Under the pieces are notes generated by a model. The model saw only the letters and a program-made list of their open reading frames with translations, was not told where the DNA came from and did not search any database. From NCBI GenBank assembly GCA_964554685.1, contig CAZKPR010000005.1, positions 1-50,359 of the forward strand: a stretch of 50,359 nucleotides of DNA, written 5' to 3'. The translations under genes were made by a program, and so were the position numbers. This DNA comes from an uncultured Leptospirales bacterium (lineage in GTDB: Bacteria > Spirochaetota > UBA4802 > UBA5550). Of this stretch, positions 24,341 through 44,064 are shown piece after piece (the first letter of the stretch is position 1; every line of letters begins with the position of its first letter).

Positions 24341-27300
24341 ATGAAGCGTCTCATAAATTTCTGCCTGAACAACTCGCTCTTCTTCATCATGCTCTTCATC
24401 GGCATATGCATCGCCGGCGTCGTCAACATGTTCGCGGCGAAGAGGGAGGCCTTCCCCAAGATCGAATACAACTACGTGGTGATCAACACCCTCTACGTCG
24501 GCGCCACCGCCGAGGACGTCGAAAAACTGCTCACCATACCCCTGGAGGATCAGCTCCGGGAAATCGACGGCATCGATGAGCTCTACTCCTCATCATTGGA
24601 GGCGCTTTCCCTTATCGTCGTCAAGCTCGACGCGGACCTGGAGAATGTGGACAAGACCGTCAATGACCTGAAAAACGCCATCGACCGCACGGAGGACCTT
24701 CCCGACGATTCGCAGAAGCCGATCGTCACGGAGCTGAGCACGGCCATGACCCCCATCGTGGACATCGCGCTCACGAAGGAAGGGGGCATACCCACGGACG
24801 AGGCCGAATCCGAGCTCCGGAACCAGGCCAAGATCCTGGAGGACCGGCTCCTTGAGCTCCGGGGCGTCGCCCGGATCGACAAAAAGGGCTACCGCGACCG
24901 GGAAATGCACGTCGAGGTCGATCCCGCCCTGCTCAACCGCTACAAGGTGTCAATGGCTGAAGTCATCATGGCCCTCGCCAAGAAGAACGTCAACATCCCC
25001 GGGGGGCTGATTCGGAACAACGGCAGGGACATCCTCGTGCGCACCATCGGCGAGGTGGAACAGATCGGGGAGATACGGAAGACCCTGGTCCGGATGAACG
25101 ACGCCGGCGGCGGGATCACCATCGGCGACGTGGCGCGAATACGCGACTCCTTCGAGGAAGCGACGATAATCAACAAGACCAACGGGGCCAGCTCAATCAC
25201 CCTGACGGTTCTCAAGAAGGAGTCCGCGGACATCATCGAACTGGTTGACCGGATCAAGCGCGAGGTGGCGACCTACAAGAAGACGGCGCCGAAGGAGTAT
25301 ACCGTCAACGTCCACAACGATCTCTCGTATTTCGTGAAGCGACGCCTGGACGTGCTGGTGGTCAACGGCCTCGGGGGATTCATCCTGGTCCTGATCATAC
25401 TGGTGCTCTCCTATGGATGGCGCATTTCGATACTGACCGCCCTGGCGATACCCTTCGCCATGTTCGCCACGATCGTCTGGATGGTGAGCCAGGACGTTTC
25501 CATCAACCTCAACTCCATGTTCGGCCTCATCATGGCCCTGGGGATGCTCGTGGACAACAACATCGTGGTCTCCGACAACATCTACCGGCACCTCGAGGAA
25601 AAATGGCCCCTCCGCGAGGCCGTCGTCAAGGGGACCGCCGAGGTCATGATGCCCATCGCCGCCACGGCCCTCACCACCATCGCCTCCTTCGCGCCCCTCA
25701 TGTTCATGACCGGCATCATGGGAAAATTCATGTGGGTTCTTCCCGCCGTGGTCACCGTGGCCCTCATCGCCTCGTGGCTCGAGTCGGGCTTCATGCTTCC
25801 CGTGCAGATCCACGAGATGCAGAAGCGCCGGAAAAGCACGGTCACCCTTAAGGAGGAGGAGGGGGGGCGGATCTTCAACGCCATCAGAACGCGGTACCTG
25901 TCGCTTCTCAGGACATGCCTCCGGCACCGCTATTTCTTCACCCTCGGCGTGACCGCCGTTTTCATCGGCACCCTCGCCTTCGGCGTCCTCGCCATGAAAT
26001 TCATTCTCTTTCCCACGGGAGGCATCGAGACGTTCGTGATCAAGGTCGAGATGCCCACGGGAACCTCCGTGACGCGCATGAGCGAAAAGATGTCCGAGAT
26101 CGAAAAAGTCGTGGCCACCCTCCCAAAATCCGAGCTCGACTGCTTCACCTCCCGGGCGGGGATCATCCAGGAGCACCCGGGCGACCCTGACACCAAGCGG
26201 GGAAGCAACTACGGCGTGCTCCTGGTGTACCTCACCCCCGAGGAAGAACGAAAGCGGAAGGCCGATGAGATCATGGACTACGTGAGGCTGAAAACAAAGG
26301 CCCTTTCAGATTTCACCAAGATCGAGTTCAAGCCGATCCGGTTCGGACCGCCCACGGGGCCGCCCATCTATATCACCGTCAAGGGGGAAGACTTCGCCGT
26401 TCTGCGCGAAATCTCCGCCATCTACAAGAAACACCTGAAAACCATACCCGGCCTCAAGGACATCAAGGACAATTACGAGCCGGGAAAGGACGAGCTCCGC
26501 ATTTTCGTGGACGACAGAAAAGCGGCCCTGACGGGCATCAGCGTATTCGATGTCGCGACGACGGTGCGCGCCGCCTATGCGGGCAACGTCTCGACCTCGA
26601 TTAAGAAAACAGAGGAGAAGATCGATATCCGCGTGCAGTTCCCCGAGGGACAGCGGAAGAACCTCGACAGCTGGAGATCGATCAAGATAATCAACCGGAT
26701 GGGCAACCTGATACCCCTGGAGATGGTGGCCCGTGTGGAGCGGAAGCAGGGCATCTCGGTGATCTACCGCAAGGGGTGGCGGCGCAACATCAACGTTTCG
26801 GCGGAGATCGACGAGAAGGCGAAGGACGTCACCTCCGTGAGCGTGAACACCATGCTCATGAAGCGCTTCGCGGACATGCCGGACCGGTATCCCGGCTACA
26901 CCGTGGATTACGAGGGGGAATTCAAGGACACCCAGGAATCGATCTCGAACCTGATGCGCTCCTTCCTCATCGCCGCCCTGGCGATATACATCATCCTCAT
27001 CGCCGTCTTCCGGTCCCTGGCCCAGCCGGTCATCATCATGGCGATCATACCCCTCGCCCTGGTGGCCGTGGTCTGGTCCTTTTTCTTCCATGGCCACCCG
27101 ATATCATTCCTGGCCCTCATGGGCGTCGTGGGTCTCGCCGGCGTGGTGGTCAACAATTCCATCGTGTTTCTCGACTTCGTGAACAGCGGGCGGTGCGCCG
27201 GCCTTTCCGCCGTCGAGGCCTCACTGGAGGCCGGGGCAAAGCGGATGCGCCCCATCATACTCTCCTCCCTGACCACGGTCATGGGACTGGCCCCCACGGC

Positions 27301-27652
27301 CTACGGCATCCTGGGAAACGACCCGTTTCTGAAGCCGATGGCCCTTTCCATGGTATGGGGCCTGGCCCTGGGAACCGTCATCACGCTCTTCGTAACGCCT
27401 GTCCTCTACACGATTTTCACGGACCTCTCCGTACGGATATTCAGGCGCGACATGCTGTGCGGTAAAATCGACGTGTCCTATCATGACGACGAAGAGGAGC
27501 GCGCCGCGAGTGAGCGAATCGAATCCCGTATTGCCGGGGAACTCTCCGCGCGCCTGAAGGGGGAAATCACCGATGAGCTCGCCGCGCGGTTCGCCCGGGA
27601 CGACGGCGGTGATTCCACACCGTCGCGACGGAGCGGCAAGAAGAAGCGGTAA
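24341..27652 (+). CDS. RND efflux transporter permease subunit (AcrB/ACR_tran type) with charged C-terminal tail
   Basis: 1103 aa. AcrB-like N-terminus (TM1, then a large periplasmic loop). Repeated 6-TM halves, for example GLIMALGMLVDNNIVV and VVGLAGVVVNNSIVFLDF. About 80 aa of acidic/basic tail. No adaptor (MFP) or OMF gene on either side. Confidence 0.9.
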   Translation: MKRLINFCLNNSLFFIMLFIGICIAGVVNMFAAKREAFPKIEYNYVVINTLYVGATAEDVEKLLTIPLEDQLREIDGIDELYSSSLEALSLIVVKLDADLENVDKTVNDLKNAIDRTEDLPDDSQKPIVTELSTAMTPIVDIALTKEGGIPTDEAESELRNQAKILEDRLLELRGVARIDKKGYRDREMHVEVDPALLNRYKVSMAEVIMALAKKNVNIPGGLIRNNGRDILVRTIGEVEQIGEIRKTLVRMNDAGGGITIGDVARIRDSFEEATIINKTNGASSITLTVLKKESADIIELVDRIKREVATYKKTAPKEYTVNVHNDLSYFVKRRLDVLVVNGLGGFILVLIILVLSYGWRISILTALAIPFAMFATIVWMVSQDVSINLNSMFGLIMALGMLVDNNIVVSDNIYRHLEEKWPLREAVVKGTAEVMMPIAATALTTIASFAPLMFMTGIMGKFMWVLPAVVTVALIASWLESGFMLPVQIHEMQKRRKSTVTLKEEEGGRIFNAIRTRYLSLLRTCLRHRYFFTLGVTAVFIGTLAFGVLAMKFILFPTGGIETFVIKVEMPTGTSVTRMSEKMSEIEKVVATLPKSELDCFTSRAGIIQEHPGDPDTKRGSNYGVLLVYLTPEEERKRKADEIMDYVRLKTKALSDFTKIEFKPIRFGPPTGPPIYITVKGEDFAVLREISAIYKKHLKTIPGLKDIKDNYEPGKDELRIFVDDRKAALTGISVFDVATTVRAAYAGNVSTSIKKTEEKIDIRVQFPEGQRKNLDSWRSIKIINRMGNLIPLEMVARVERKQGISVIYRKGWRRNINVSAEIDEKAKDVTSVSVNTMLMKRFADMPDRYPGYTVDYEGEFKDTQESISNLMRSFLIAALAIYIILIAVFRSLAQPVIIMAIIPLALVAVVWSFFFHGHPISFLALMGVVGLAGVVVNNSIVFLDFVNSGRCAGLSAVEASLEAGAKRMRPIILSSLTTVMGLAPTAYGILGNDPFLKPMALSMVWGLALGTVITLFVTPVLYTIFTDLSVRIFRRDMLCGKIDVSYHDDEEERAASERIESRIAGELSARLKGEITDELAARFARDDGGDSTPSRRSGKKKR

Positions 27653-27656
27653 GGCC

Positions 27657-28397
27657 ATGGGAGCGGGACTCCCCGTAATAGAACTCGATACCGTCGATTC
27701 AACGAACAGCTATATCAGGGCGCACCCCGAACTGTGGACACGCCCCTTCTGTGTCGTTGTCGCCCGGGAGCAGACCGCGGGACGGGGGCGCCATGGACGA
27801 CGATGGCATTCGGAGCCGGGTCTTGACCTGACCTTCTCGCTTCTCTTTGTGCCTCCTTCACCCCCATCGGAGCTCAACGGCGTGACCCTCCTGGCGGGCC
27901 TCGCCGCCTACCGCGCCCTTCTTCCCCGGCTGGATGACGGCCTCAGGCTCAAGTGGCCGAATGACCTTCTTCACAACGGCAAAAAGATCGGCGGCATCCT
28001 CTGTGAACTCTTCGACGCGGGAAAACGCCCAGGCGTGATTATCGGCATCGGCATCAACGTCAACAGCACCTGCTTCCCGGGGGATCTGGAGGGCGCCGCA
28101 TCCTTGAGACTCATAACAGGAAGGAGCCACGACACCGGGGAGCTTCTCGGCGATATCCTGGGGACGCTGGCCGCGCTTCTCAAGGGCTTCAACCCGCCCC
28201 TTGATAAGGACCTCCTCCGGGAATGGGAGGAGGCGTCATCCTCGATCGGCGCAAGGGTTCATTATCGCCGCCCGGGCGGAATGGGAAGCGGAGTTATTAG
28301 CGGCGTCGATTCCCGGGGATTTCTTCTCATCCGGAATGATGACGACGCGAAAATCGTGCCACATGCCGGGGAGGTTCTTTTCGAAGACGACAGATAA
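27657..28397 (+). CDS. birA: biotin--[acetyl-CoA-carboxylase] ligase, group I (no HTH domain)
   Basis: ATG at 27657, 4 nt after the RND stop. LDTVDSTNSY, biotin-binding GRGRHGRRWHS, KWPNDLL..GKKIGGIL. Confidence 0.85.
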   Translation: MGAGLPVIELDTVDSTNSYIRAHPELWTRPFCVVVAREQTAGRGRHGRRWHSEPGLDLTFSLLFVPPSPPSELNGVTLLAGLAAYRALLPRLDDGLRLKWPNDLLHNGKKIGGILCELFDAGKRPGVIIGIGINVNSTCFPGDLEGAASLRLITGRSHDTGELLGDILGTLAALLKGFNPPLDKDLLREWEEASSSIGARVHYRRPGGMGSGVISGVDSRGFLLIRNDDDAKIVPHAGEVLFEDDR

Positions 28398-28421
28398 ACC
28401 CCCTTCCGTTAATCTAACCCA

Positions 28422-28500
28422 ACACTGTCGACATGGAGGAAGGCGGATACACTGTCGTATCAATTAATCCTTGCCACGGAAGACCCCCGGTGCATACTGT
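28422..28500 (+). promoter_or_regulatory. repeat elements and candidate promoter in the leader of the giant carboxylase gene
   Basis: ACACTGTCG occurs twice (28422-28430 and 28449-28457). The first overlaps palindrome TGTCGACA. The second is embedded in GATAC-ACTGTC-GTATC (28446-28461). It is followed by TTGCCA (28471-28476), an 18-nt spacer and TACTGT (28495-28500). Confidence 0.25.
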
Positions 28501-28635
28501 TCTTTTCCACCCCCGTACACCACCGGAACCCCGCGGGGCGCCCCGGGGGATTTCATAGAATGCGAGGGAGATTGAAGCCAGGGCCCGGGGGATGATGGAG
28601 GACGGGCGGCCCTGCGTGAAATCGTCGCGTCCAGG

Positions 28636-31600
28636 ATGAAACAGTACAGCTTGAGTGAAGAAATCAACTCCGCCCTGGAGGGGCTCAAGGCCCTTAATCC
28701 CGATATTGCCGGAAGCCGCGGGTCGGACCGGGATTCCGAAACTGGTTCCCGGGCACACCGCCTCCAGAAAGTCCTGGTGGCAAACAGGGGCGAGATCGCC
28801 AAGCGTTTCTTCCTCGCCCTTCACGAGGAAGGCATCCCCTCCGTCGCGTCCGTCGCCGACCCGGACCGCGGGCAGTCCTGGTATGAGTTCGCCGACGAGG
28901 TGATCTTCATCGGCGACCCCTACCACTACGCGAGCATTCCCGTCGTCATCGCCGCCGCCCTCCTTTCGGGGGCCAATGCCGTGTATTCCGGCTATGGCTT
29001 CCTCTCTGAAAACGCCGGGTTCGTCAGGGCGATCGATTCCCTCCGGGACTCAGGGGAAGACATCATCTTCATGGGTCCCGATTATGAAACCATGCGCAGG
29101 GTGGGCAGCAAGATCGAGGCGCGCCGCCTCGCCCGCGACAACGGGATACCGGTTCTCGACAGCACCGGGGCACTTTCCGCCGACGATCCCCCGGCCGTCG
29201 CCCGGGAGGGAGCCCGGCTCGGTTATCCCCTGTACCTCAAGCTCTCTTCGGGCGCGGGGGGACGGGGCATCTACAGGGCCGAGGACGAGGCGGCCCTCAT
29301 CACCGCCGCGGGAGAAGCGGCCCGCCTTGGCCGGGAGCTCTACGGCGACTCCAGCTGTTACCTGGAGCGCCTCATCCGGGACCCGGTCCATTTCGAAGCG
29401 CAGATATTCAACGGCCGCGCCATCGGCATACGGAAATGCGCCGTTCAGAGAAGGAACCAGAAAATCATAGAGGAGAGCGGGCACTGCTTCCTCGATGACA
29501 CCGTCGCCAGGGACCTCCTCGGCGCCGCGGAAAAGATGGCGGTGCTTTCCGGCTACGACCATTCCGGCGGCGCCGGGACCGTGGAATTTCTGCTTGATTC
29601 GGAGACCGGCCGATTCGGCTTCATGGAGATGAACTCCCGCCTCCAGGTGGAGTACGCCGTGACGGACCAGTCTCTCGGGATCGACCTTGCGAAATGGCAG
29701 ATCCTTTTCTTCGACGGCCGCGAATCGGAGATTCCCTGGCCCGGCGGCGAGGAACCACCGGCATCCCATTCCATCGAATGCCGCATCTACGCCGAGGAGC
29801 CGGAAAACGACTACCTCCCCTCGCCGGGGAAAATCATCGAGCTCGATCTTCCCACGTTCAACGGCATCAGGTGCGATTTCGGCTTCATGGAGGGCGATAC
29901 CGTTCTTCCCATGTACGACCCCATGATTGGGAAGCTGATCGCCCACGGCGCCACCCGGCGGGAAACCATCATACGGCTCGAGCGGGCGCTCCAGGAGCTC
30001 TACATAGGAGGCGTCAAGACCAATATCGGCCAGCTTCTCCGGATCGTGCGCCACCACGCCTTCATTCGCGGCGACTACACCAACACCATACTCGGCATGT
30101 ACCCCGAGCTCGCCAGTGCCAGGACGGCCCTTTCCCCGGGGGCGTCCGAGGACAGGCGCGCGATGAAGCAGACCATCTTCGGCGCCTTCACGGAGCATCT
30201 CCGCCACCTGCGGCACTCCGTCGGAGAATTCATCGTCATAGCCGGCCTGGGAAGCGTCCTTGACCCCAACGCCGACCCCGGCGCTCCCTCCCGCTACACC
30301 GTGGAGCACGAGGGCCGGCGCGTGACCGTTGATTTCCTACAAACCGCCATCGACACCTTTCACGCCTTTGTTAACGGCCTTTACAACGGGAAGATACTCC
30401 TGACGTCCATGAACGACCGTTGCGACGATTTCCTCATCGTCTTCGGATCGAGTTCGTACCGCCTGCGGGCGAACCGCCATCCAGGATTCATCGAGCTGAG
30501 GATGAAGGACGACTTCAACAAGATCAACTATTACCGTGTCGCCGTCGCCACCGAGGGCTCGCCTGAGGAAACGACGGCCCGGAAAGTCTGCTCCCCCTTC
30601 CAGGGAACCTTCGTGTCATTCAGCCGGGACCTCGGGGCCGGCGACACCGTGCGGGAAGGAGAGCCCCTCATGGTGCTTTCCTCCATGAAAATGGAGACGG
30701 TCATCACCGCCCCCGCGGGGGGCAGGATCATCTCGCTGATCGAGGACGGCGACACGGAGAGGCTGCATCTCACGCGCACGGCGGGGGGACGCGTAATGGG
30801 AAGAAGCGTCAACGAGGGCGAGGTGCTCGCCGTGATCGAAACGGCGGATATTCCTTCCGAAACTGACGAGGCGCCGCACCACCCGGAGTCAACGGTGCCA
30901 CCCGCACCGCCAGCCTCGGTTCTTGATCACCTGTTCCGCGATGACTTTTCCGACGCGGTTCTGGAAGACCCGGCGGGTCGCATCAAAACCGCCCTGGAGG
31001 TGCTCCACGCCGCCACTCTCGGATTTGTCCAGCGGTCATCGATACTGGAATCTCTGAAAAAGACGGTGCGGCGGATTCCCCCCGGTATCGACGGGAACCT
31101 CATCTCCGACGAGGTCATCGACCTCATGAATTCCATCATACTCTTTCATACCGGCATCAAGAAGCTCTTTTCTCCCGTGATCACCGAAGAGGGCCTCTCC
31201 TTCCTGGAGGAGCTGGACCACCACATAGCCGGGGGAGGGAAGGCCAGGAGCCAGGCCTCCCGGCCCTTCGAGCGGCTCCTGAGGCGCGTCGTCGACGCCT
31301 ATGGCATCTCCCGCTGGGAAGAGCGCTCGGAGATGAGCGAGCTCGCGCACAATTACGTATTTCTTCTCCTGGGCCGCGCCTACCGGTTCAGCCTGGACCA
31401 GACGGACCTGATCAAGAAGATCGTGGAGATCATCTCCGCCATCAGGCGACCCGAAAAAAACACGCTGGTCACCCTCGCCGGCCTTATGGAGCAGGAACAG
31501 GCCGAGCGTGACGATTCTCTGCTTAAATTCATCAAGCGGATCCTCGCCGCTCAGTTCGATGACGCCGACCTTGCCGCCTTCAGGGAACGGGAGCTCTCAC

Positions 31601-34488
31601 CGTCGGTTAAAAATCTCTACGTATCATTCCGCGAGCGCTTCACCGAGGGAATCGCCTCGCTCTGCGCCGCCTCGCTCTCGGCTCCCGCCGCGGGAAAGGA
31701 CGTGGATTCCCTCCTCCCTCCCGGCGTGCGCGGGGATATCACCCGCCGCCTCGCCGTACTCGGCCGATCATGTTCGGCGCGTCGGCTCTATTCCCCCATG
31801 GAGAACGTATGGCCCTATCTTCTGGACTCCACGACGGAATCACCGAAGCGGAGTTTCATGTTATTCACCCGCGCGGCGACGACTCCCGCGGGTGCGGGAA
31901 TCGCCGGGGCCCTCGCCGAAGCCCTCCAGGTGGCGGCACTGTACCGCCAGGTTGAGCCGGGCGATGACTGCTGGATTGAAGTCTTTGCCGAGGACGCCAC
32001 CCTTTCGTGGGTCGATGAAGCCGGCGACGGTTTCCTGCCGTACAGGGAATTCAGGAGCATCTGCGAATCGTCACTGCCGGCCAGAAAAAACGGCGGCATT
32101 CTCAGGTTCATAATCAACATCGGCGTCCGCTTCCCGTTTTCCGGGGAGACCCGCCGGAGAAGCGTCCTTGCCTGCCGGCACAACGATTTCCTCTCGATTG
32201 AATTCCTCCTCGCCATGGACCGGACGAACCCCTACCACGATCCAGGGGAAATGACGATCCCGAACCAGCGCCTCATCGACCTCGGCAAGTGGCCGATCGA
32301 GGCGTGGGCTGAATCATGCTTCGATCCCGGCACGATGCGCGAAATCCGTATACCCTCGATCGACGAGACGAACGAGGCGACGCCCGGAGACCTGCGTATC
32401 ATAAGCCGCCCTCCGGGGGCGAAGATTTACCAGGGGCTCGTCGGAGGACTCCCGGCCTGCTTCTACATGAAGGATTCCCGGGTCAGCGGCGGCTCCACGG
32501 GAAGCAGGGAAGGTCTCAAGTACGTCGCCGCGGCCTACCTGGCCTACATGAACGACTGTCCGCTCTATGTCTGGAACGACAGCGCCGGGGCCAACATTAT
32601 GGAGGGCGTGATATCCCTCAACAGGGGCGCCCAGGGATTCATGATCAACGCCCTTCTCACGGAGAGGGCGCGTGACGAACGCGTGCGGAGCTACATCGAA
32701 CATGCCGCCGATCCCGATCTTAAAAAAATCACGGGGGACATCGACCGGGAATACGGTTTCGGCGACGGAACGCCGCGGGAGCGAAGGTCATTCCAGCTCA
32801 CCGCGATCGGCATCGGCTCTTCGGCCGGTCTGGACGTGTACGGTTCGAGCCAGGCCTCGATACAGATACTCCTCGATTCAGAGGAATCGTACCGCGTTCT
32901 CACGGGCTCGAAGGTGGTCCACACCGTCATAGGCGAAGAGATCACCAACTATGACATCGGCGGAGCCAAGATCCTCGGCACCTGGACCGGCATCGTCGAC
33001 GTGGTCGCCGCGGACAAGCTGCACCTCATTGCATGCATCCACCTGGCCCAGGGTATTTTCACGTCCCGGGATGAACTCCCGGGAATCGCCCGTTCCGGCG
33101 CGTCCCCGGGGCCCCACGTGGTCGCCGATCCGATCGCCCTCAACGAATCGATGATACGGGCACACGTCGACTGCGGGGTGTTCTGGCCCTTCAAGGAGAA
33201 CTACTACGCCGCGGAATCGCTCATCGGCGGCTTCGCCCTTATCGGAGGACGGCGCGCCCTCATCATGGGTCCCCGGACCCACGGGGGCCTCCGCTCCCTC
33301 GCCACGGTGATCAAGGCCAGGGAACTTCTCAGGACGGCCCACCGGACCGGTTCCCACCGCGTGCTCGTTTTCGGGGCGCGGTGGCAGCAGACGCCCGCCA
33401 TCCATGAACAGATGCAGATGAGGCCGCGGATAGATTTCATGAACTCCATGATGCGATCCCGGGGCCTGCAGATTCACATCATCACCCATCCCGGGGGCCT
33501 GAGGTGTTTTGAACTGAACTGCGCCGCCGATTCGCTCATCTACGTGAGGAGCGGGAAGGAAAGCGCCCCCGACTGGACCTTCGCCCAGAAGAACGCGGGC
33601 TTCATCGTCGACTCCCTCGGCGCGGCCTTCGACCTGGCCCACCGCCTGATCGCCATGATCGACCCCGCCGCGGGAACGAACGATTTCATCTTGCCGCGGG
33701 GCGAACCCGCCATCCCTCGCGACGCCGCCGAGCCGTACGATATAGTAGAATCGGTGATCCTCCACGCTTTCGACGAGGGTTCCTTTCTCGAGTTCCACCG
33801 CGACATGAACAACCCCATCACGGGGCCGCACCTGATCACGGGACTCGCGGGACTTGAAGGCCGCACCGTCGGCGTCATCGCGGACCAGCCCCTCCTGAAG
33901 GGAGGAGGCGCGGACGCCTTCGGCACGGAGAAGTTCCGCGTGTTCACCGAGTTCCTCTCGGGCCACGGGATACCCCTGGTCATGCTTTCGAACTCCTCGG
34001 GATTCGTCCCGGGATCCCAGCAGGAGCGCCACCGGATCCAGGCCATCGGCGCGGAGTCCCTTGACGCCAACATCCTCGGCACCATTCCCGTGGTGAGCGT
34101 GGTCCTCAACCAGAATTACGGCGGCCGGCTCATCCACGCCTACAACCGGTTCCTCCGCCCCGGCATCGTCTACCTCGCCCTGGAGAAGGCGATCATGGCC
34201 GTTATCGGCGTCAGCGCGGCCTTTGATCTCCTGTACGGAAAACGGTACGCGCGCCTTCTTGAAAAAGGGGACGTGGAATCGGCCGAAGAGCTGAAACGGG
34301 AATTTTCGGAAAGCTACATCGAAAAGGCCAGGGCGGAGAATGACGGCGTTGCATCAGGCCTTGTGGACTGGACGATACCCGTCGTGGCGGAGCTCAGGAC
34401 GCACCTGATACGCGGGATGAAACTGGCGTTCGAGCGATGCCGGGCGGCCTTTGGGGACGAAGATACTTCCGGGAAAGGAACGACTTAA
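28636..34488 (+). CDS. single-chain multidomain biotin-dependent acyl-CoA carboxylase (BC - BCCP - long linker - carboxyltransferase)
   Basis: 1950 aa with no stop or frame break. Biotin carboxylase ATP-grasp: KVLVANRGEIAKRFF, GYPLYLKLSSGAGGRGI, FMEMNSRLQVEYAVTD. Biotinyl domain EGEPLMVLSSMKMETVITAP (Lys codon at 30688-30690). About 450 aa without motifs I recognise. Two-lobed carboxyltransferase: GGSTGSREGLKYV...NDSAGANIMEG; TVGVIADQPLLKGGGADAFGTEK...SGFVPGSQQE. Confidence 0.85.
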   Translation: MKQYSLSEEINSALEGLKALNPDIAGSRGSDRDSETGSRAHRLQKVLVANRGEIAKRFFLALHEEGIPSVASVADPDRGQSWYEFADEVIFIGDPYHYASIPVVIAAALLSGANAVYSGYGFLSENAGFVRAIDSLRDSGEDIIFMGPDYETMRRVGSKIEARRLARDNGIPVLDSTGALSADDPPAVAREGARLGYPLYLKLSSGAGGRGIYRAEDEAALITAAGEAARLGRELYGDSSCYLERLIRDPVHFEAQIFNGRAIGIRKCAVQRRNQKIIEESGHCFLDDTVARDLLGAAEKMAVLSGYDHSGGAGTVEFLLDSETGRFGFMEMNSRLQVEYAVTDQSLGIDLAKWQILFFDGRESEIPWPGGEEPPASHSIECRIYAEEPENDYLPSPGKIIELDLPTFNGIRCDFGFMEGDTVLPMYDPMIGKLIAHGATRRETIIRLERALQELYIGGVKTNIGQLLRIVRHHAFIRGDYTNTILGMYPELASARTALSPGASEDRRAMKQTIFGAFTEHLRHLRHSVGEFIVIAGLGSVLDPNADPGAPSRYTVEHEGRRVTVDFLQTAIDTFHAFVNGLYNGKILLTSMNDRCDDFLIVFGSSSYRLRANRHPGFIELRMKDDFNKINYYRVAVATEGSPEETTARKVCSPFQGTFVSFSRDLGAGDTVREGEPLMVLSSMKMETVITAPAGGRIISLIEDGDTERLHLTRTAGGRVMGRSVNEGEVLAVIETADIPSETDEAPHHPESTVPPAPPASVLDHLFRDDFSDAVLEDPAGRIKTALEVLHAATLGFVQRSSILESLKKTVRRIPPGIDGNLISDEVIDLMNSIILFHTGIKKLFSPVITEEGLSFLEELDHHIAGGGKARSQASRPFERLLRRVVDAYGISRWEERSEMSELAHNYVFLLLGRAYRFSLDQTDLIKKIVEIISAIRRPEKNTLVTLAGLMEQEQAERDDSLLKFIKRILAAQFDDADLAAFRERELSPSVKNLYVSFRERFTEGIASLCAASLSAPAAGKDVDSLLPPGVRGDITRRLAVLGRSCSARRLYSPMENVWPYLLDSTTESPKRSFMLFTRAATTPAGAGIAGALAEALQVAALYRQVEPGDDCWIEVFAEDATLSWVDEAGDGFLPYREFRSICESSLPARKNGGILRFIINIGVRFPFSGETRRRSVLACRHNDFLSIEFLLAMDRTNPYHDPGEMTIPNQRLIDLGKWPIEAWAESCFDPGTMREIRIPSIDETNEATPGDLRIISRPPGAKIYQGLVGGLPACFYMKDSRVSGGSTGSREGLKYVAAAYLAYMNDCPLYVWNDSAGANIMEGVISLNRGAQGFMINALLTERARDERVRSYIEHAADPDLKKITGDIDREYGFGDGTPRERRSFQLTAIGIGSSAGLDVYGSSQASIQILLDSEESYRVLTGSKVVHTVIGEEITNYDIGGAKILGTWTGIVDVVAADKLHLIACIHLAQGIFTSRDELPGIARSGASPGPHVVADPIALNESMIRAHVDCGVFWPFKENYYAAESLIGGFALIGGRRALIMGPRTHGGLRSLATVIKARELLRTAHRTGSHRVLVFGARWQQTPAIHEQMQMRPRIDFMNSMMRSRGLQIHIITHPGGLRCFELNCAADSLIYVRSGKESAPDWTFAQKNAGFIVDSLGAAFDLAHRLIAMIDPAAGTNDFILPRGEPAIPRDAAEPYDIVESVILHAFDEGSFLEFHRDMNNPITGPHLITGLAGLEGRTVGVIADQPLLKGGGADAFGTEKFRVFTEFLSGHGIPLVMLSNSSGFVPGSQQERHRIQAIGAESLDANILGTIPVVSVVLNQNYGGRLIHAYNRFLRPGIVYLALEKAIMAVIGVSAAFDLLYGKRYARLLEKGDVESAEELKREFSESYIEKARAENDGVASGLVDWTIPVVAELRTHLIRGMKLAFERCRAAFGDEDTSGKGTT

Positions 34489-34865
34489 GACGCCTCTTCG
34501 TCCCCTTTCCCCGCCAGCTCCTCCATGCGCGCGGAAGAAATACGCTCCCAGTCAGGGTCGATGAACCTCCCGCCCTCGCGAATAAAATGGACTATGTCGA
34601 AGGTTTCCCGGTAATGCTCGAGTCGGGAGCCCCGGTCGGGATTCTGCTCGATGTAGAGCAGCCTGTCCGGATCGAGGCCGAATTCCTCCACGATCTGCCC
34701 GGCGAGGGAGTCGGCGCAGGTGGTCACGCTCGTGCCGGGGTTCTCCTCGTGGAGCTCCGTGACCACGACGACATCGCGATCCCTGCCCCTGATGATCCGC
34801 AGCCCGCACCGCGAGGGCACGTCCCAGTGTCCCCTGAAGGAGTAGATTGTGTCCATGTACTTCAT
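34485..34865 (-). CDS. hypothetical protein, last gene of the minus-strand lipid operon
   Basis: 126 aa. It starts 6 nt after the radical SAM stop. Codon usage is GC3-rich like its neighbours. No family recognised. Its stop shares the tetranucleotide TTAA (34485-34488) with the convergent carboxylase stop. Confidence 0.5.
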   Translation of the reverse strand: MKYMDTIYSFRGHWDVPSRCGLRIIRGRDRDVVVVTELHEENPGTSVTTCADSLAGQIVEEFGLDPDRLLYIEQNPDRGSRLEHYRETFDIVHFIREGGRFIDPDWERISSARMEELAGKGDEEAS

Positions 34866-34871
34866 GGGAAA

Positions 34872-36161: not shown

Positions 36162-36226
36162 GGGGGTACTCTCTCGCTTCACGGACAGTACTGTCAATAG
36201 TTTTTCGAACGCACGGATCACTCCCC

Positions 36227-36874
36227 TCAGTCGCGCGTTTCCTCGGTCTCGATCAGTTCCAGCACCAGGGAGTACGCAGGGGTGCCCGCGGCGGTGAAAT
36301 CGATGCGCTCCGGCATCCCCATGCGGCGGCCGGCCGAATAGCGGATCACGCGTTCCCGCGTGCGCGACGCGCCGTAGACCGCCACCTCGATCTCGCCGCC
36401 CTCCCTCCTGATGACGTCTGTCACGGTCTCTTCAGAACGGTAGCGCGCAACGCGGCTCCCGTCACGCAGCGTTCCCGATTCAACGGGCTTTCCGGGGGGC
36501 GCGAAAAGAATAAGCCTGATATCCCTGATCATCCCCGCGACAAAAGCGGGAGAGGAGAAGGGCCCGATGGCCCGGTGGATCACGAGGCCGCCATCATGCT
36601 CCGCGTCGAGGAACACCAGCCCCTCGATGGACATTAGTGAGAAGCGGATCCTTCCGGTCCTTTCCTCGAAGGCGAAGACGCCGATCATCGACGCCGTGGC
36701 GCCCCCGGGGAGGGTCCCGGTTATGGAATGAATGAGGCGCCGGCTTCCCGTCACGAAGGGGGAATCAACCCCGCCCGCGTCCGCGTCCCCGCCGGCGAAG
36801 GGAGTGATGGCGGGAAGGCCGGCGCAGGCCGTCAACAGAACAAGCACGATAAGGAAAGGAGGAAAGCGCATCAT
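36227..36874 (-). CDS. lipoprotein, possibly DUF3261-like (ApeN-like)
   Basis: Lipobox MMRFPPFLIVLVLLTACAG. About 215 aa. Its start overlaps the LolA-like stop (ATGA at 36871-36874). The family assignment rests on size and context only. Confidence 0.55.
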   Translation of the reverse strand: MMRFPPFLIVLVLLTACAGLPAITPFAGGDADAGGVDSPFVTGSRRLIHSITGTLPGGATASMIGVFAFEERTGRIRFSLMSIEGLVFLDAEHDGGLVIHRAIGPFSSPAFVAGMIRDIRLILFAPPGKPVESGTLRDGSRVARYRSEETVTDVIRREGGEIEVAVYGASRTRERVIRYSAGRRMGMPERIDFTAAGTPAYSLVLELIETEETRD

Positions 36875-37503
36875 ATCCCCTTGAAAAGCGAATCGGGCAG
36901 CCTCTCGTTCAGGCGGACACCCGAGAACTCGAGAAGGGTGTAGGACCTTTCGCTTTCGAATATCTTCACCGTGCGTATCACACCGGGCGTGGAGGAAAGC
37001 CGGAGCTCGATCCGCTGGATGAATTCCGCCATGGAACGCTCCTTCGGCGTGAGTACGATCACCCTCCCGGGGCGAAGGATCGGGGTGAAATCGGGGTTGG
37101 CGTCGAAGCTCCCCTTCATCCAGAGGGTGATCTCCTGGAGCACGACGCGCATCGACTGGAGTCGCGCCGTTGAATCGCTCGTCATCCGCCCGCCGCGCTC
37201 GACGTAGCGGCGCACGGACCGGTTATGCATGAGGAGAACGCTCCGGACCGGGGACTCGTATTCCCACCGGAGGGACGCAGGGGCCTGGAAATAAAACGTT
37301 CCCTTCGAAACGAGGGGCCGCGCCAGTATGGGCATCTGCTTCGTCTGGGTGAAATTCGCGCGGACGGAGGTGATCTCACGGGCCGTCGAGCGAATCTCCT
37401 CCCAGCCATCTCCCCAGGCGAGAAGCGACAGGGAAAGAATGGCCGGGACCGCCCTGGCCGCGAAGGGGATTCTCGTTGTCGTTGTATTCCTGAAATACCG
37501 CAT
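36871..37503 (-). CDS. LolA-like outer-membrane lipoprotein carrier family protein
   Basis: 210 aa. Signal peptide, then ITSVRANFTQTKQMPILARPLVSKGTFYFQAPASLRWEYESP, typical of LolA-fold proteins. Confidence 0.7.
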   Translation of the reverse strand: MRYFRNTTTTRIPFAARAVPAILSLSLLAWGDGWEEIRSTAREITSVRANFTQTKQMPILARPLVSKGTFYFQAPASLRWEYESPVRSVLLMHNRSVRRYVERGGRMTSDSTARLQSMRVVLQEITLWMKGSFDANPDFTPILRPGRVIVLTPKERSMAEFIQRIELRLSSTPGVIRTVKIFESERSYTLLEFSGVRLNERLPDSLFKGI

Positions 37504-37527: not shown

Positions 37528-38265
37528 TCAGATCATCCCGCCGTTCACGCCTATCACCTGTCCCGTAATGTAGGACGCCTCGTCGGAGCAGAGGAAGCGC
37601 ACCGCCGCGGCGACCTCCTCGGGCCTTCCCACGCGGCCCATGGGTATGACATGCTTGATCATCTCCACCGGTGCGTCCCTGATCATGTCCGTCTCTATGA
37701 GTCCCGGGGCCACGACGTTGACCCGTATCCCCTTTTTCGCAACTTCCGAGGCGACCGTTCTGCTGGCGCCGATGAGACCCGCCTTCGCCGCGGAGTAGTT
37801 CGCCTGCCCCTTGTTGCCTATGAGCCCCGCCACGGAAGCGATGGAAACCACGGAGCCCTTCTTCTGTCTCAGCATCTTCTTCAGGGCCGGCTTCGTCATG
37901 TTGTAAAAGCCTTTCAGGGTCGTGGCGATGACGGCGTCCCATTCGGACTCCTGCATCATGAGGAAGAGGTTGTCCGCCGTGATCCCCGCGTTGTTCACCA
38001 GGGCATCGAGCCTGGGAAAACGCGCGGTAATATCCTCCATCGCCTTTTCCGCTTCCGCCGCCGACGCCACGTCGAATTTCATCGCCTCGCCGTCGCCGCC
38101 GGCCCCCCGTACGAGGTCCATGGTCTCCGCTGCGGCCGCGTCGTTCGAACGATAGTTGACGATGATATAATAGCCGTCGGTGGCGAGCCCCACGGCAATG
38201 GCGCGGCCGATCCCCCTGCTCGCGCCGGTTACGATGGCCGTTTTCCGCCCCTCGTTGATTTCCAT
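37528..38265 (-). CDS. fabG: 3-oxoacyl-ACP reductase (SDR, FabG type)
   Basis: ATG at 38265 preceded by [28 protein letters not shown], catalytic S...YSAAK, and PGLIETDM. The 122-codon upstream extension in the ORF track overlaps the dehydratase gene and is rejected. Confidence 0.9.
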
Positions 38266-38285: not shown

Positions 38286-38729
38286 CTACTCTTCGGGCCT
38301 GAACACCTGAAGATGAATATCCCCGGCAACCCCGGATCCGGTTTCGACGATGCCCGCCACCTCGACGTAGTCGCGCTCCTGCTTCACTCTCCTCGCCGTT
38401 ACGGTCAATCGCTCTCCAGGGGGTATGCTCGTCACCGAGAAGACCGCCTTCTTGACTCCCACGAGCCACCCGGGACGCGTATTCTCTTCCGGATTCCCCG
38501 TTTCGGCGGCATTCTTCATTCCGAAATAGGCGCCTATGCTCTGGGCCACGAGCTCGATCATGACGATGGGGTTGACGCCGCGGTCCCCGGAGAGGGGCCA
38601 GTGGGGCCCCGCGACCGCGGTGGTGACGCATCGTTCTTCATCGAACTCGATGATCTCCTCGATGAGCCTCATCCTTCGTCGGTGAGGAATCAATGTCTCA
38701 ATGTCATGCATGATCTGCGTCCCAGGCAA
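38286..38729 (-). CDS. hotdog-fold beta-hydroxyacyl-ACP dehydratase (FabZ/ApeI-ApeP-like)
   Basis: About 141-147 aa (start at 38729 or ATG at 38711). [14 protein letters not shown] opening motif. [13 protein letters not shown] central helix. Confidence 0.75.
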
Positions 38730-38766
38730 CGGGTGAGGAATCAGGCTATTTCATTCGAAGTAATGG

Positions 38767-38788
38767 TGTCAATAAAAATAAGTTGACA
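38767..38788. promoter_or_regulatory. inverted repeat / back-to-back -35 boxes in the divergent promoter region
   Basis: TGTCAA (38767-38772), A/T-rich 10 nt, TTGACA (38783-38788). Each arm reads TTGACA toward one of the two divergent operons. The downstream -10 candidates are weak (AAGACT on the plus strand). Confidence 0.3.
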
Positions 38789-38829
38789 GCATCCCGCTCC
38801 GCGTCGAAGACTTTTCGGCGTTACATACC

Positions 38830-39105
38830 ATGAAGAGGGAGCGTGCAATGGGGGAATTAATCGCCGAGCTGAAGGAAAAAATCATCGAGACCCTCGACCT
38901 GATCGATGTCGTACCCGCCGATATCGCCGAGGAGGACCCCCTCGTGGGAGGAAAGCTCGGCCTTGACTCTATCGACATACTCGAGCTCGCCATGATGGTG
39001 GACAAGGAATACGGATTAAAGATAGACAGCAAGGAGCTGGGCAGGGAGGTCTTCTCAACCCTGAGGACCCTCGCCGATTACATCACGAAGCACCGCCAGG
39101 GATAG
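38830..39105 (+). CDS. acyl carrier protein (dedicated, non-housekeeping context)
   Basis: About 85-91 aa. Phosphopantetheine site LGLDSIDILELAMMVDKEYG. Confidence 0.85.
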   Translation: MKRERAMGELIAELKEKIIETLDLIDVVPADIAEEDPLVGGKLGLDSIDILELAMMVDKEYGLKIDSKELGREVFSTLRTLADYITKHRQG

Positions 39106-41269: not shown

Positions 41270-41275
41270 GGCGCC

Positions 41276-42622
41276 ATGAAGGTACTCCTGATCTCCGCCA
41301 ACACGCTGCGCGTTCCCTATTGCATCTATCCACTGGGCCTCGATTACGTCGCGCGGGCGATAGCGGACCGCCATGACGTGATGATCCTGGACAGCAACCT
41401 CACCAAGGGCGCGGATCAAGTCGCCGGGACCATCCATGATTTCAAGCCCGATCTGATCGGCATATCCCTGAGGAACATCGACAACACGAACGTACTGGAC
41501 TCGAAGGGCTACATCGAGGCGTACCGGAAACTGGTCGAGGCGATACGGCAGTGCACGGATGTTCCCGTCATTCTCGGCGGAAGCGGCTTCACCCTTTTCC
41601 CGGCGCGTCTCATGGAGCTCATCGGCGCCGACTACGGCATCATCGGCGAGGGGGAGAGGCTGCCCATGCTCCTGGAGGCCCTGGAAAGGGGGGATGATCC
41701 CGCGGGCATTCCCGGCGTCATCACCGGGTCCATGAAGGGTTCCTTTCCTCCCCCCCTTGGCGAGGATTTCCATCGCGCGCCCCTCCAGGGGGAGATCGCC
41801 CGCTTCTACATCGAGCGGGGGGGCATGCTCAACCTCCAGACGAAGAGGGGCTGTCCCTACCGGTGCGTTTACTGCACCTACCCTCATATCGAGGGAAGCG
41901 ATCTTCGCCCGATCCCGCCGGAGGAGGCGGCCGAAACCGCCAGGGAACTCGAGCACGCCGGGGCGAAATACCTCTACATCACCGATTCCGTGTTCAACGC
42001 CGACTACGACCAGAGCAGCCGCGTGGCCCGGGCGTTCATGGATGCGGGGCTCGGAATACCCTGGGGGGCGTTTCTCTCCCCCACGAAGCCGCCGCCGGGC
42101 TACTATGCCCTTCTCCGCGACGCGGGGATGACCCACGCCGAATTCGGCACGGAGTCCCTTTCACCCTCCATGCTCGCCTCCTATAGAAAACCTTTCTCGG
42201 TCGACGATGTCCATGAGGCCCATGCCGCCGCGGTCGCCGCCGGGCTTCATGTCTGCCACTACCTGCTCCTGGGGGGACCCGGGGAGAACCGGGAGACCCT
42301 CGAGGAGACCCTGGCACACGCCGACCGCCTGGAGAGGACCGTCATCTTCTTTTTCTGCGGGATCAGGATCTATCCCCACACCGCGCTGTACGAGATCGCC
42401 CTCCGGGAGGGGCAGATATCCGAGCAGGACGATCTGATCGAGCCGGTATTCTACCAGTCCCGGGATATCAGCGGGGAGGAGATAATCCGGATCACCACGG
42501 AGCGGGCCGCGGGAAGGGAGAACTGGTTCATCGGCACGGGGAGCAGGCTCACCACGCGCCTGGTGGCGCGCCTCCACCGCCAGGGCCATACGGGGCCCCT
42601 CTGGGAGATGATGATCCGGTGA
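41276..42622 (+). CDS. B12-binding-domain radical SAM enzyme (lipid-biosynthesis type)
   Basis: MKVLLISANT...YPLGLDYVA...DLIGISLRN B12-like domain. TKRGCPYRCVYCTYP cluster motif. Starts 6 nt after the KS stop. Confidence 0.85.
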   Translation: MKVLLISANTLRVPYCIYPLGLDYVARAIADRHDVMILDSNLTKGADQVAGTIHDFKPDLIGISLRNIDNTNVLDSKGYIEAYRKLVEAIRQCTDVPVILGGSGFTLFPARLMELIGADYGIIGEGERLPMLLEALERGDDPAGIPGVITGSMKGSFPPPLGEDFHRAPLQGEIARFYIERGGMLNLQTKRGCPYRCVYCTYPHIEGSDLRPIPPEEAAETARELEHAGAKYLYITDSVFNADYDQSSRVARAFMDAGLGIPWGAFLSPTKPPPGYYALLRDAGMTHAEFGTESLSPSMLASYRKPFSVDDVHEAHAAAVAAGLHVCHYLLLGGPGENRETLEETLAHADRLERTVIFFFCGIRIYPHTALYEIALREGQISEQDDLIEPVFYQSRDISGEEIIRITTERAAGRENWFIGTGSRLTTRLVARLHRQGHTGPLWEMMIR

Positions 42623-44064
42623 AAGGCCCGAGGATCCTCACCCTGGCGCCGGCGCACCTCGCCGGCGCCGCCGCCCTGTCTGCCGCGGCGCTCCTGGCCC
42701 TCATCGATCCCCGTCTCTCCGCCATACCCCTGGCTCTCTTTCTGTTCGCCTGTTTCGCCGCGCCCTTCTTCCCCCGCCGGGGTTTCTATCTCCCGGTGAT
42801 ATCCGGGGGCGATCCGTCGCGCCGCGCCGTCGCCCTCACCTTTGACGACGGCCCCGACCCCGCGACGACCCCGCCGCTTCTCGATCTCCTGGCGAAGAAG
42901 GGCGTGACCGCGGCCTTTTTCCTCGCCGGGGCCAGGGCCGAGGCGCACCCGGACCTTGCGGCGCGCGTCATCGAAGTGGGCCACGAGATCGGCAACCATT
43001 CATACCGCCATGACCCCTTCCTCATGCTGAGGGGCACGGGGCGCATCCGGGAGGAGATACTCCGGGGACGGGAGGCCATCGCCCAACTCGGGGTACTCAC
43101 CTTCGCCTTCAGGCCCCCCGTGGGGATCACGAACCCCCGCCTGGGCCGGCCCCTCGTCGAGGCGGGGAGCCACTGCGTCAACTTCAGCCGCAGGGCCCTG
43201 GACGCGGGGAACCGGCGGATAACGGGACTCGCGGGAAGGATCACCGGGAGCGTGAGGTCCGGGGACATCATTCTCCTTCACGACACCGCGCCCCCGGGGG
43301 AGTTCGACCTGGATCTCTGGCTCGGCGAGGTGGATCGCGCCATCGACGGGATCAGGGAAAAGGGCCTGGGGATCATTCCCCTTTCGGAGCTCACGGGCCG
43401 GCCCGTATCCGTGGCAATCGACCGGGCTGAAGGCGTACCGGCTCCTTCTCCCCTCGACCGCATCGCCTCCCTTCCGGAGAACACGGGCACGTGGGGAAGC
43501 CCCTATTCAATGATGGAGCGGGAGCTCATCGAGACGAATCTCCTGCCCGAGATAAAGACCTCGCACCGAATCCTCGACATCGGAATCGGCGGTCCGAATA
43601 CCCTGGCCCTCTCGCGCCACGGGGCCCGCGTGACCGCCCTGGTGCACACGGGCGGGGCTGCGGCCCTCCTGCAGGGAAGCGCGAAGGGGGCAATGAGTGG
43701 TGCGATAGAAATTCTCACCGTCGATACCGAAACGATTGATACAATGGGTCAATTCGATATCGTAACCTGCTTTTCTTTTATCGAATATGTGCCCGAGGGG
43801 GAGCGGCTTCTCGCGACACTGTATTCCCTGCTGAAACCCGCGGGCCTCCTCTACCTCACCACGGCCCTGAAGTCATGCGGGGCCCTCACCGCGATGCCCC
43901 GCGCCGCCCTGCGCACCGGCGTCCTTCCCCTGACCAGAAGCGAAGGCCAGATCGCGCAGATTTTCCTCCACGCGGGATTCCGCGACGTCCGCATAACCTC
44001 GCATCCGATCGGAAGGCGCTTCTCGCCGCGGATCATCGAGGTCATGGCAAGACGGGAAGGGTAA
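42619..44064 (+). CDS. membrane-anchored NodB-type polysaccharide deacetylase fused to a class I SAM methyltransferase
   Basis: GTG start overlapping the preceding stop (GTGA). Two N-terminal TM helices. NodB motifs LTFDDGPD and GHEIGNHSYRH. C-terminal ILDIGIGGPNTL (motif I), then FDIVTCFSFIEYV. Confidence 0.75.
   Translation: MKGPRILTLAPAHLAGAAALSAAALLALIDPRLSAIPLALFLFACFAAPFFPRRGFYLPVISGGDPSRRAVALTFDDGPDPATTPPLLDLLAKKGVTAAFFLAGARAEAHPDLAARVIEVGHEIGNHSYRHDPFLMLRGTGRIREEILRGREAIAQLGVLTFAFRPPVGITNPRLGRPLVEAGSHCVNFSRRALDAGNRRITGLAGRITGSVRSGDIILLHDTAPPGEFDLDLWLGEVDRAIDGIREKGLGIIPLSELTGRPVSVAIDRAEGVPAPSPLDRIASLPENTGTWGSPYSMMERELIETNLLPEIKTSHRILDIGIGGPNTLALSRHGARVTALVHTGGAAALLQGSAKGAMSGAIEILTVDTETIDTMGQFDIVTCFSFIEYVPEGERLLATLYSLLKPAGLLYLTTALKSCGALTAMPRAALRTGVLPLTRSEGQIAQIFLHAGFRDVRITSHPIGRRFSPRIIEVMARREG

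Follow-up and report, generated by a model that had tools for sequence, protein, structure and literature searches.

Between 24341 and 44064 of the window, a 50,359-nucleotide stretch of DNA from an uncultured Leptospirales bacterium (phylum Spirochaetota; contig CAZKPR010000005.1 of assembly GCA_964554685.1), lies a dense run of lipid-related genes that includes two B12-binding radical S-adenosylmethionine (radical-SAM) enzymes, here called rSAM1 and rSAM2. Our results indicate, at a probability that we put at roughly 0.6, that the part from 34.5 to 44.1 kb is a copy of a widespread orphan specialised-lipid cluster of the TIGR04072 or "ladderane-type" class, that its chain-building parts are aryl-polyene-like, and that the carboxylase beside it is a housekeeping enzyme. 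The cluster class has already been described, and the locus adds another member to a known, uncharacterised orphan class. The first-pass annotation of this DNA had described a coherent, uncharacterised lipid cluster similar to type II fatty acid synthase (FAS) and polyketide synthase (PKS) systems, which synteny bears out for the core, and had built one 20-kb island around a giant carboxylase, which synteny does not support.

The conserved core and its class

The hallmark enzyme of the cluster class is rSAM2. It matches the NCBIfam model TIGR04072 (rSAM_ladder_B12, "lipid biosynthesis B12-binding/radical SAM protein") over residues 2-448 with 392.7 bits, against a cut-off of 360, and it contains the CxxxCxxC motif. 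The score above the cut-off therefore places the locus in the class that goes back to Rattray et al. (PMC2649909); in 2009 they reported FAS-like clusters with radical-SAM enzymes common to the anammox (anaerobic ammonium-oxidizing) bacterium Kuenenia and to Desulfotalea psychrophila. Non-anammox "ladderane" clusters have also been reported from metagenome-assembled genomes (MAGs) by antiSMASH annotation (PMC9902471) and are discussed in PMC11968836. Given its gene content, the locus would be expected to trigger the antiSMASH "ladderane" rule. Relatives of rSAM2 were found in at least 595 GTDB species representatives and in at least 3967 protein clusters at E≤1e-20. The nearest proteins are those of uncultured Spirochaetota MAGs, and the best rSAM2 locus among the species representatives belongs to Spirochaetota bacterium AnMBR.bin250 (96% identity). 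The nearest characterised relatives are BzaD (148 bits) and the tryptophan 2-C-methyltransferase family (128 bits), while among solved structures the cobalamin methyltransferase TsrM (6wte, 121 bits) comes closest. Literature searches returned no papers on TIGR04072, rSAM_ladder_B12 or "lipid biosynthesis B12-binding", and none tying B12-radical-SAM enzymes to methyl-branched fatty acids in sulfate reducers.

To define the conserved gene set, 80 rSAM2-anchored loci were compared with the window proteins by tblastn and all of their open reading frames (ORFs) were clustered; presence was counted only in loci with enough flanking DNA, namely 55 with at least 7 kb upstream and 59 with at least 8 kb downstream. 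An acyl carrier protein (ACP) gene lay upstream of rSAM2 in 50 of the 55 loci. The FabG-type ketoreductase (KR) was present in 33, the fusion of a ketosynthase (KS) with a chain-length-factor (CLF)-like half in 32, and the LolA-like carrier in 30; the lipoprotein beside the LolA-like gene, the hotdog dehydratase (DH) and an rSAM1 gene adjoining the cluster were each found in 28. About half of the rSAM2-anchored loci (28-33/55), drawn from two phyla, share this gene set together with its order. From the lipoprotein to rSAM2, order and orientation were kept in both Spirochaetota and Desulfobacterales-type MAGs, the latter being 45-76% identical to the core of the window, and the full core order was seen in loci L003 and L004. 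Downstream of rSAM2, the NodB domain was present in 37 of the 59 loci and the methyltransferase domain that is fused to it in the window in 13, all of them Spirochaetota. Since the same gene order recurs across two phyla, the core arrangement is far beyond chance.

A second module, marked by a pair of non-B12 radical-SAM genes, was found in 51 of the 59 loci. The two radical-SAM enzymes are usually accompanied by an ApeI-like FabZ, a second ACP, two FabF-like KSs, a YbgC-type thioesterase, a PKS-DH-like protein and a PlsY-like protein; the module lies at 12952-17076 in L004 and downstream of rSAM2 in most of L008-L085. It is absent from the window and, within the DNA available, from the closest relatives (L006 and L003/L007). 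The copy in the window is a reduced version of the cluster. The gene for the PlsY-like acyltransferase of the second module hints that the product may end in a glycerolipid.

The condensing enzyme of the core is the KS-CLF fusion. Alignment of its halves showed that the N-terminal KS half keeps the Cys-His-His residues, while the C-terminal half has Asp in place of the Cys and has lost both His residues, and for this reason we regard the C-terminal half as a CLF-like partner. The best match of the KS half in the PDB was 9s5h_B (221 bits); that of the CLF half was 6qsp_B, which we take to be the aryl-polyene CLF, followed by 9s5h_C. Entry 9s5h holds two different FabF-like chains (B and C), and we suspect, unconfirmed, that it is the anammox amxFabF2/amxFabFmut heterodimer. 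The best NCBIfam match of the KS was PRK09185, below its cut-off (320 against 407). The KR, which has the YxxxK motif, best matched the flexirubin protein FlxB (303 bits, cut-off 340), and the LolA-like protein best matched the flexirubin LolA2 model (LolA2_flexi; 92 bits, cut-off 125). The ACP keeps its Ser, and the lipoprotein had no match in Pfam or NCBIfam.

In the hotdog DH, the catalytic His (PHWP) and Glu (IELVAQ) can be read from the sequence. Its score with the ApeP-like model was 20.4 bits, below the cut-off of 27, and its seven PDB matches at E≤1 were led by ordinary FabZ (best E 0.0012); 6qsr_B, which we take to be an ApeI/ApeP chain, was among them at E 0.062, and none was labelled anammox FabZ. 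The NodB domain of the last core gene has the metal-binding motifs TFDDG and HSYRH and is preceded by two N-terminal hydrophobic helices. An anammox SAM methyltransferase, considered as a relative of the methyltransferase domain of this fusion, was absent among the domain's PDB matches, the best of which were UbiG and PmtA. Pfam and NCBIfam scans of 24-44 kb, the region to which the domain searches below also refer, found no enoyl reductase. Tested as a housekeeping FAS-II operon, the region also had no malonyl transferase and no 3-ketoacyl-ACP synthase III (KAS III), and its condensing enzyme is the KS-CLF fusion.

The carboxylase edge and rSAM1

The resistance-nodulation-division (RND) permease, BirA and the carboxylase are outside the conserved cluster. 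When the neighbourhood is followed through related genomes, as the first-pass annotation had advised, the core proves syntenic in two phyla, but neither the carboxylase nor the RND gene is kept with it. The carboxylase lay within 10 kb of rSAM2 in 2 of the 55 loci, abutted the core only in the closest relatives of the window (L006 and L003/L007), and was found in no Desulfobacterales-type locus. The BirA-carboxylase pair is kept in three further Spirochaetota loci (L086, L087 and L093), in the same orientation but about 15 kb upstream of the core's edge, where it belongs to a block of CitMHS_2 (in two of the three), H+-PPase, a small ORF, BirA and the carboxylase. Between the carboxylase and the core, L086 and L093 hold an ABC transporter, a second ACP-KS-CLF set and BtrH_N genes; in L087, what follows the carboxylase over 10 kb is mostly unannotated ORFs and then an ABC transporter. 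Because the relatives hold genes in this gap, the adjacency in the window looks like a lineage-specific deletion in a conserved chromosomal neighbourhood. A Smithellaceae genome has the carboxylase among BipA, RF3 and CarB, without BirA and without the cluster.

The gap DNA of L086 (18782-21906) and L093 (19206-21511) is itself another uncharacterised lipid-like cluster, apparently deleted in the lineage of the window. Its ACP/KS/CLF-like set is followed by a ketoreductase in L086, and the gap also contains BtrH_N/DUF4872 genes that are repeatedly paired with a small gene.

The carboxylase, an acyl-CoA and probably an acetyl-CoA carboxylase, is a single chain with the domain order biotin carboxylase (BC), biotin carboxyl carrier protein (BCCP, with an MKM motif), a central domain of about 550 residues, and a PccB-type carboxyltransferase (CT); by sequence, the best PDB matches of the CT domain are of the PccB/AccD5 type. 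The central region (residues 707-1263; window 30754-32424) had no Pfam match, ACC_central included, and a profile search against PDB sequences gave nothing at E≤10. An AlphaFold model of this region, built with ten homologues, was of medium confidence, with a predicted local distance difference test score (pLDDT) of 71 and a predicted template-modelling score (pTM) of 0.47. In a Foldseek search with this model, the top 26 matches were all central domains of eukaryotic acetyl-CoA carboxylases (ACCs) from yeast, Chaetomium and human, led by 5csl_A (E 6.5e-7). The central region is thus predicted to fold like that of eukaryotic ACC. The long-chain acyl-CoA carboxylase 4rcn was rejected as a model, as its match was weak (E 3.6e-7), its length is 1093 residues and it aligned within the CT region only.

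The carboxylase of the window therefore resembles yeast and human ACC, and also SACE_4237, the essential single-chain ACC of Saccharopolyspora erythraea with the same architecture (PMC6491548), in carrying BC, BCCP, central and CT domains in one chain of about 200 kDa; its predicted central fold is like that of the yeast and human enzymes. It differs from the eukaryotic enzymes in a CT sequence closest to the bacterial PccB/AccD5 type, in the lack of a Pfam ACC_central match and in its Spirochaetota host. Full-length homologues (40-84% identity, about 1900-2000 residues) come mainly from Spirochaetota MAGs, and also from the Smithellaceae genome. PMC6491548 cites Spirochaetes as having no four-subunit ACC, in keeping with a housekeeping role. 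Because the carboxylase looks like a eukaryote-type single-chain ACC, housekeeping supply of malonyl-CoA is the simpler reading: on the modelled fold, BirA and the carboxylase most likely make malonyl-CoA for the whole cell, and they would sit near the core because this spirochaete clade keeps a conserved neighbourhood of lipid genes.

The RND permease stands without a neighbouring membrane-fusion or outer-membrane partner. In none of the 80 loci does an orthologue border on the cluster; the one match, a 25% identical RND protein, lies about 8 kb downstream in L003/L007.

These observations bear on the view that all 20 kb form one dedicated biosynthesis-and-export island, in which BirA and the carboxylase would supply extender units and the RND permease would export the product. 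Speaking for it, the genes adjoin one another both in the window and in its closest relatives, and in the three loci where the BirA-carboxylase pair stands off, it keeps its orientation and the gap holds further lipid genes. The rarity of the carboxylase near rSAM2, its absence from the Desulfobacterales-type loci, its setting in Smithellaceae, its spread through Spirochaetota MAGs as a eukaryote-type ACC, and an RND pump found next to the cluster in the window only all argue against it, and we consider such an island unlikely. The bespoke extender-unit supply and the RND export that had been proposed for it are not supported by these findings.

A similar separation applies to the two B12-radical-SAM enzymes, which had been described as a pair. 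rSAM1 represents a family of its own with very high conservation: none of its 120 best homologues falls below 70% identity, and their source labels are Spirochaetota, Chrysiogenales, Deltaproteobacteria and Bacteroidales. No NCBIfam family reached its cut-off. Its CxxxCxxC motif reads GCRFNCYPC. Directly 3' of rSAM1 lies a gene for a 126-residue protein, and alignment and a hidden Markov model (HMM) placed a homologue of this protein in the same position after the rSAM1 homologue in L003, L089 and L090; in L091 and L092 a gene for 123-130 residues occupies that position, an assignment by size and placement only. In L089-L092, the pair sits around 10001-11700 of each locus. In a Bacteroidales genome, the rSAM1/small-protein pair stands beside a sulfotransferase, sulfate-activation genes, an AMP-ligase and KAS III, and the pair of L091 is likewise beside a sulfotransferase. 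In the Desulfobacterales-type loci, rSAM1 adjoins the cluster and the small protein is absent. The small-protein family comprises 791 representatives at E≤1e-3 and has no Pfam model; its only fusion partner, DUF6166, is uninformative, and a single-sequence AlphaFold model (pLDDT 52) was too poor for searching.

Proposed pathway and competing readings

For the core as a specialised-lipid cluster we propose the following pathway. By analogy with an anammox KS/CLF-like heterodimer that was shown to decarboxylate malonyl-ACP (bioRxiv 10.64898/2026.05.19.726425), the KS-CLF pair would prime the pathway by decarboxylating malonyl-ACP and, together with the KR and DH, would extend an unsaturated chain (enoyl or polyene-like) on the ACP to a defined length. 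The rSAM2 gene is almost always beside an ACP gene, and the enzyme may modify the ACP-bound chain at carbon. C-methylation would be the most likely modification, because the nearest characterised relatives of rSAM2 (TsrM and BzaD) are cobalamin methyltransferases; C-C ring formation would be less likely. rSAM1 may add a second carbon-centred modification, the NodB/methyltransferase fusion may tailor an acceptor or head group at the membrane's inner face, and the LolA-like protein and the lipoprotein would carry the product to the outer membrane.

Several observations weigh against this reading. No member of the class has an assigned product, so that all of these chemical steps are inferred, and the claim that no product can be assigned from the sequence stands. 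The missing second module means that the genes of the window may make up only half of a pathway whose other genes lie elsewhere in the genome, and the ApeI-like partner expected for the ApeP-like DH, usual in the relatives, is missing from the window. The scans found no thioesterase, acyltransferase or glycosyltransferase through which the chain could be released or attached. The usual substrates of NodB enzymes are acetylated sugars, yet no sugar-handling gene is present. The role of rSAM1 in the pathway is uncertain, because the rSAM1/small-protein pair also occurs away from lipid genes, as in L090 and L092, where its context has none. Finally, at least five Spirochaetota genomes keep BirA and the carboxylase close to the core, roughly 0-15 kb from its edge, so that a functional link between them and the core is possible.

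The resemblance to aryl-polyene clusters, already pointed out in the first-pass annotation, raises the question of a pigment cluster of the aryl-polyene/flexirubin type, making an aryl-capped polyene anchored in the outer membrane. Like those systems (KS:CLF ApeO:ApeC, ApeQ, ApeI:ApeP, the ACPs ApeE/F and LolA-like proteins), the core has a KS:CLF pair, a KR and a DH without an enoyl reductase, as well as a LolA-like protein and a lipoprotein for delivery to the outer membrane. Several of the best family and PDB matches come from there: the ACP passes PRK09184, the best NCBIfam models for the KS, KR and LolA-like protein are PRK09185, FlxB and LolA2, the CLF half best matches 6qsp_B, and the hotdog DH is weakly ApeP-like. 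Of the proteins compared with these family models, however, only the ACP reaches the cut-off. The region has no aryl-starter enzyme (no domain of an ammonia-lyase, or of a chorismate-derived acid pathway with a CoA or AMP ligase), no ApeI partner, and no thioesterase, lysophospholipid acyltransferase (LPLAT)-type acyltransferase, glycosyltransferase or ApeM-type exporter, whereas it has two B12-radical-SAM enzymes. To our knowledge, such enzymes are not part of known aryl-polyene clusters. A pigment of this type is, on balance, quite improbable.

The earlier absence claim (no ammonia-lyase, aryl-AMP ligase, thioesterase, glycosyltransferase or acyltransferase) held up inside 24.3-44.1 kb. Outside it, 6 kb upstream, a PlsC/LPLAT-type acyltransferase (PF01553, 96 bits) is encoded at 17655-18383 (-), beside a protein with an adenylate-cyclase domain; it could be a housekeeping PlsC or the acyltransferase absent from the cluster.

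The other resemblance that the annotation had named, that to the anammox ladderane candidates, is borne out by TIGR04072. The literature on the anammox candidate clusters includes Rattray 2009, Javidpour 2016, Dietl 2023 and the Granatino 2026 preprint, and our comparison is one of gene content and order taken from publications, together with the name of the family model. On this basis, the core shares with the Kuenenia clusters (Cluster I, KustE3603-3608; kuste2802-2805; kuste3335-3352) an ACP, an active KS, a dead KS as CLF, a hotdog protein and a B12-radical-SAM enzyme in comparable order. The order ACP, KS, CLF, B12-radical-SAM is that of Cluster I (bioRxiv 10.64898/2026.05.19.726425; PMC10139942), whose active and inactive FabF pair appears in the window as one fused chain. 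The kuste3335-3352 cluster also holds a NodB-like protein and a SAM methyltransferase, as does the fusion in the window, and it resembles the second module of the relatives, the non-B12 radical-SAM pair of which is similar to kuste3342/3343 (PMC2649909, PMC4790861). The window departs from the anammox clusters in its non-anammox spirochaete host, in the fusion of KS and CLF, in a DH that appears ApeP-like rather than amxFabZ-like, and in the addition of FabG, the LolA-like protein, the lipoprotein and a second B12-radical-SAM enzyme. Furthermore, no ORF of the region has an amine-oxidase/phytoene-dehydrogenase domain that could represent the phytoene-dehydrogenase-like enzyme of Cluster I.

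Within this class, it is a long shot that the TIGR04072 enzyme, perhaps with rSAM1, would form C-C bonds, as small rings or cross-links, in an enoyl or polyene chain carried by the ACP. If it did, strained or carbocyclic ladderane-related lipids would be expected from hundreds of non-anammox anaerobes, and the stripped-down spirochaete cluster would offer a minimal gene set for reconstituting the chemistry.

A true ladderane pathway, with the organism making cyclobutane-ladder lipids as anammox bacteria do, is very improbable. The membership of rSAM2 in rSAM_ladder_B12 and the match in gene order with Cluster I favour it. The host, however, is a Spirochaetota MAG of about 60% G+C and not an anammox planctomycete, the family occurs in at least 595 species, and Desulfotalea psychrophila has syntenic clusters but no ladderanes (PMC2649909). 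The phytoene-dehydrogenase-like gene is lacking, the hotdog DH has no good PDB match and none labelled anammox FabZ, and even for anammox bacteria it is unproven that these genes take part in making ladderanes (PMC10139942). The window falls into the same class as the clusters of D. psychrophila and other non-anammox bacteria, which combine FAS-II-like genes with radical-SAM genes in anaerobes not known for ladderanes; unlike these, it has the Spirochaetota-specific NodB/methyltransferase fusion, is without the second module and abuts the carboxylase.

That unrelated lipid genes without a common pathway came together by chance is barely credible, for although the left edge is a mosaic in which RND, BirA, the carboxylase and the rSAM1/small-protein pair each occur independently elsewhere, the order and orientation kept from the lipoprotein to rSAM2 in two kinds of MAG, with tight junctions, refute it for the core.

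Gene map, flanking genes and significance

The gene calls, made from the ORF listing together with Pfam and NCBIfam scans of the window, confirm the genes that the first-pass annotation had named and their positions (Table 1). The annotation had counted 14 proteins, and we count 13 genes. A 538-residue ORF on the + strand (34437-36053) was rejected as an artefact of the high G+C content at third codon positions (GC3), since it has no family match and runs antisense to the conserved rSAM1. A naive longest-ORF caller prefers this ORF over the real rSAM1 gene.

Table 1. Genes and intergenic region between 24341 and 44064 of the window
Feature	Coordinates	Strand	Basis
AcrB-type RND permease	24341-27652	+	Pfam ACR_tran, 614 bits
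BirA biotin-protein ligase, no repressor domain	27657-28397	+	TIGR00121, 163 bits (cut-off 83)
Single-chain carboxylase, 1950 aa, BC-BCCP-CT	28636-34488	+	Pfam domains
Small protein, 126 aa	34485-34865	-	no Pfam family
rSAM1 (B12-binding radical-SAM enzyme #1)	34872-36161 (ATG) or 36221 (GTG)	-	B12-binding, 33.8 bits; Radical_SAM, 23.4 bits
Lipoprotein, lipobox LTAC	36227-36874	-	sequence
LolA-like periplasmic lipid/lipoprotein carrier	36871-37503	-	Pfam LolA, 56 bits
FabG-type 3-oxoacyl-ACP reductase (KR)	37528-38265	-	NF004200 FabG, 295 bits (cut-off 273)
FabZ/ApeP-like hotdog dehydratase (DH)	38286-38729	-	FabZ, 29.8 bits (weak)
Divergent intergenic region between both core operons	38730-38829		coordinates
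Dedicated ACP, LGLDS motif	38830-39105	+	NF006617 (PRK09184), 79.5 bits (cut-off 70)
KS-CLF fusion, 719 aa	39110-41269	+	Pfam ketoacyl-synt and Ketoacyl-synt_2
rSAM2 (B12-binding radical-SAM enzyme #2)	41276-42622	+	TIGR04072, above cut-off
NodB-type (carbohydrate esterase 4, CE4) deacetylase/class I SAM methyltransferase fusion, membrane-anchored	42619-44064	+	Polysacc_deac_1, 92.5 bits; Methyltransf_23, 44 bits

The tight packing that had been reported, with 4-nt overlaps or gaps of at most 24 nt in most cases, was reproduced: the junctions are 4-nt overlaps or gaps of 4-24 nt, except for the 238-nt gap between BirA and the carboxylase and possibly for the junction of rSAM1 with the lipoprotein. 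The ACP, KS-CLF and rSAM2 genes follow one another with gaps of 4-6 nt, and the lipoprotein and LolA-like genes overlap by 4 nt. The gap between rSAM1 and the lipoprotein is 5 nt with the GTG start at 36221 and 65 nt with the ATG start at 36161. The ATG at 27657, read from the sequence 4 nt past the RND stop, is probably the true BirA start. The two core operons do diverge, over 100-136 bp according to the start codons chosen. A promoter and terminator scan of 27.4-44.4 kb gave counts equal to the shuffled expectation, and a consensus promoter scan gave nothing above chance in the intergenic region.

At about 0.8, GC3 is uniform throughout the cluster and its flanks and therefore gives no sign of recent horizontal transfer, which we rejected as an origin of the high-GC right arm; the higher GC of that arm arises because its proteins are Ala/Gly-rich. 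On the left, the region is flanked by a CitMHS_2 transporter, and on the right, directly 3' of the cluster, by a 929-residue sensor-phosphatase with seven-transmembrane (7TM), PAS, GAF and SpoIIE phosphatase domains (44195-46984, +), which is kept in L006 at 95% identity. This sensor may regulate the neighbourhood. SpoIIE-type genes also occur near the CitMHS/carboxylase block in L086 and L093. Farther off in the window, a ribonucleotide reductase with a C-terminal TSCPD domain is encoded at 3471-5783 (+), a combination that we take to be typical of the B12-dependent class II enzyme; it would fit a host able to provide its B12-radical-SAM enzymes with cobalamin.

The biosynthesis of ladderane lipids has been debated for over two decades. 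Neither genetics nor heterologous expression has succeeded with the candidate anammox genes (PMC4790861, PMC10139942), and Cluster I has been stated to be exclusive to ladderane producers (PMC10139942; bioRxiv 10.64898/2026.05.19.726425). The module of ACP, KS/CLF and B12-radical-SAM enzyme is nevertheless not confined to anammox bacteria, as hundreds of other anaerobes carry homologous versions in a more compact form. This locus alone adds little, since its host is uncultured and it is no more testable than many public copies. Separate follow-up may be worthwhile for the very highly conserved rSAM1/small-protein pair and for the spirochaete carboxylase; the central region of the latter is predicted to share the fold of eukaryotic ACC and may tell something about where the eukaryotic enzyme originated. 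For the class as a whole, the product of the non-anammox clusters would either reveal a new, widespread class of lipid or narrow what the anammox enzymes can do.

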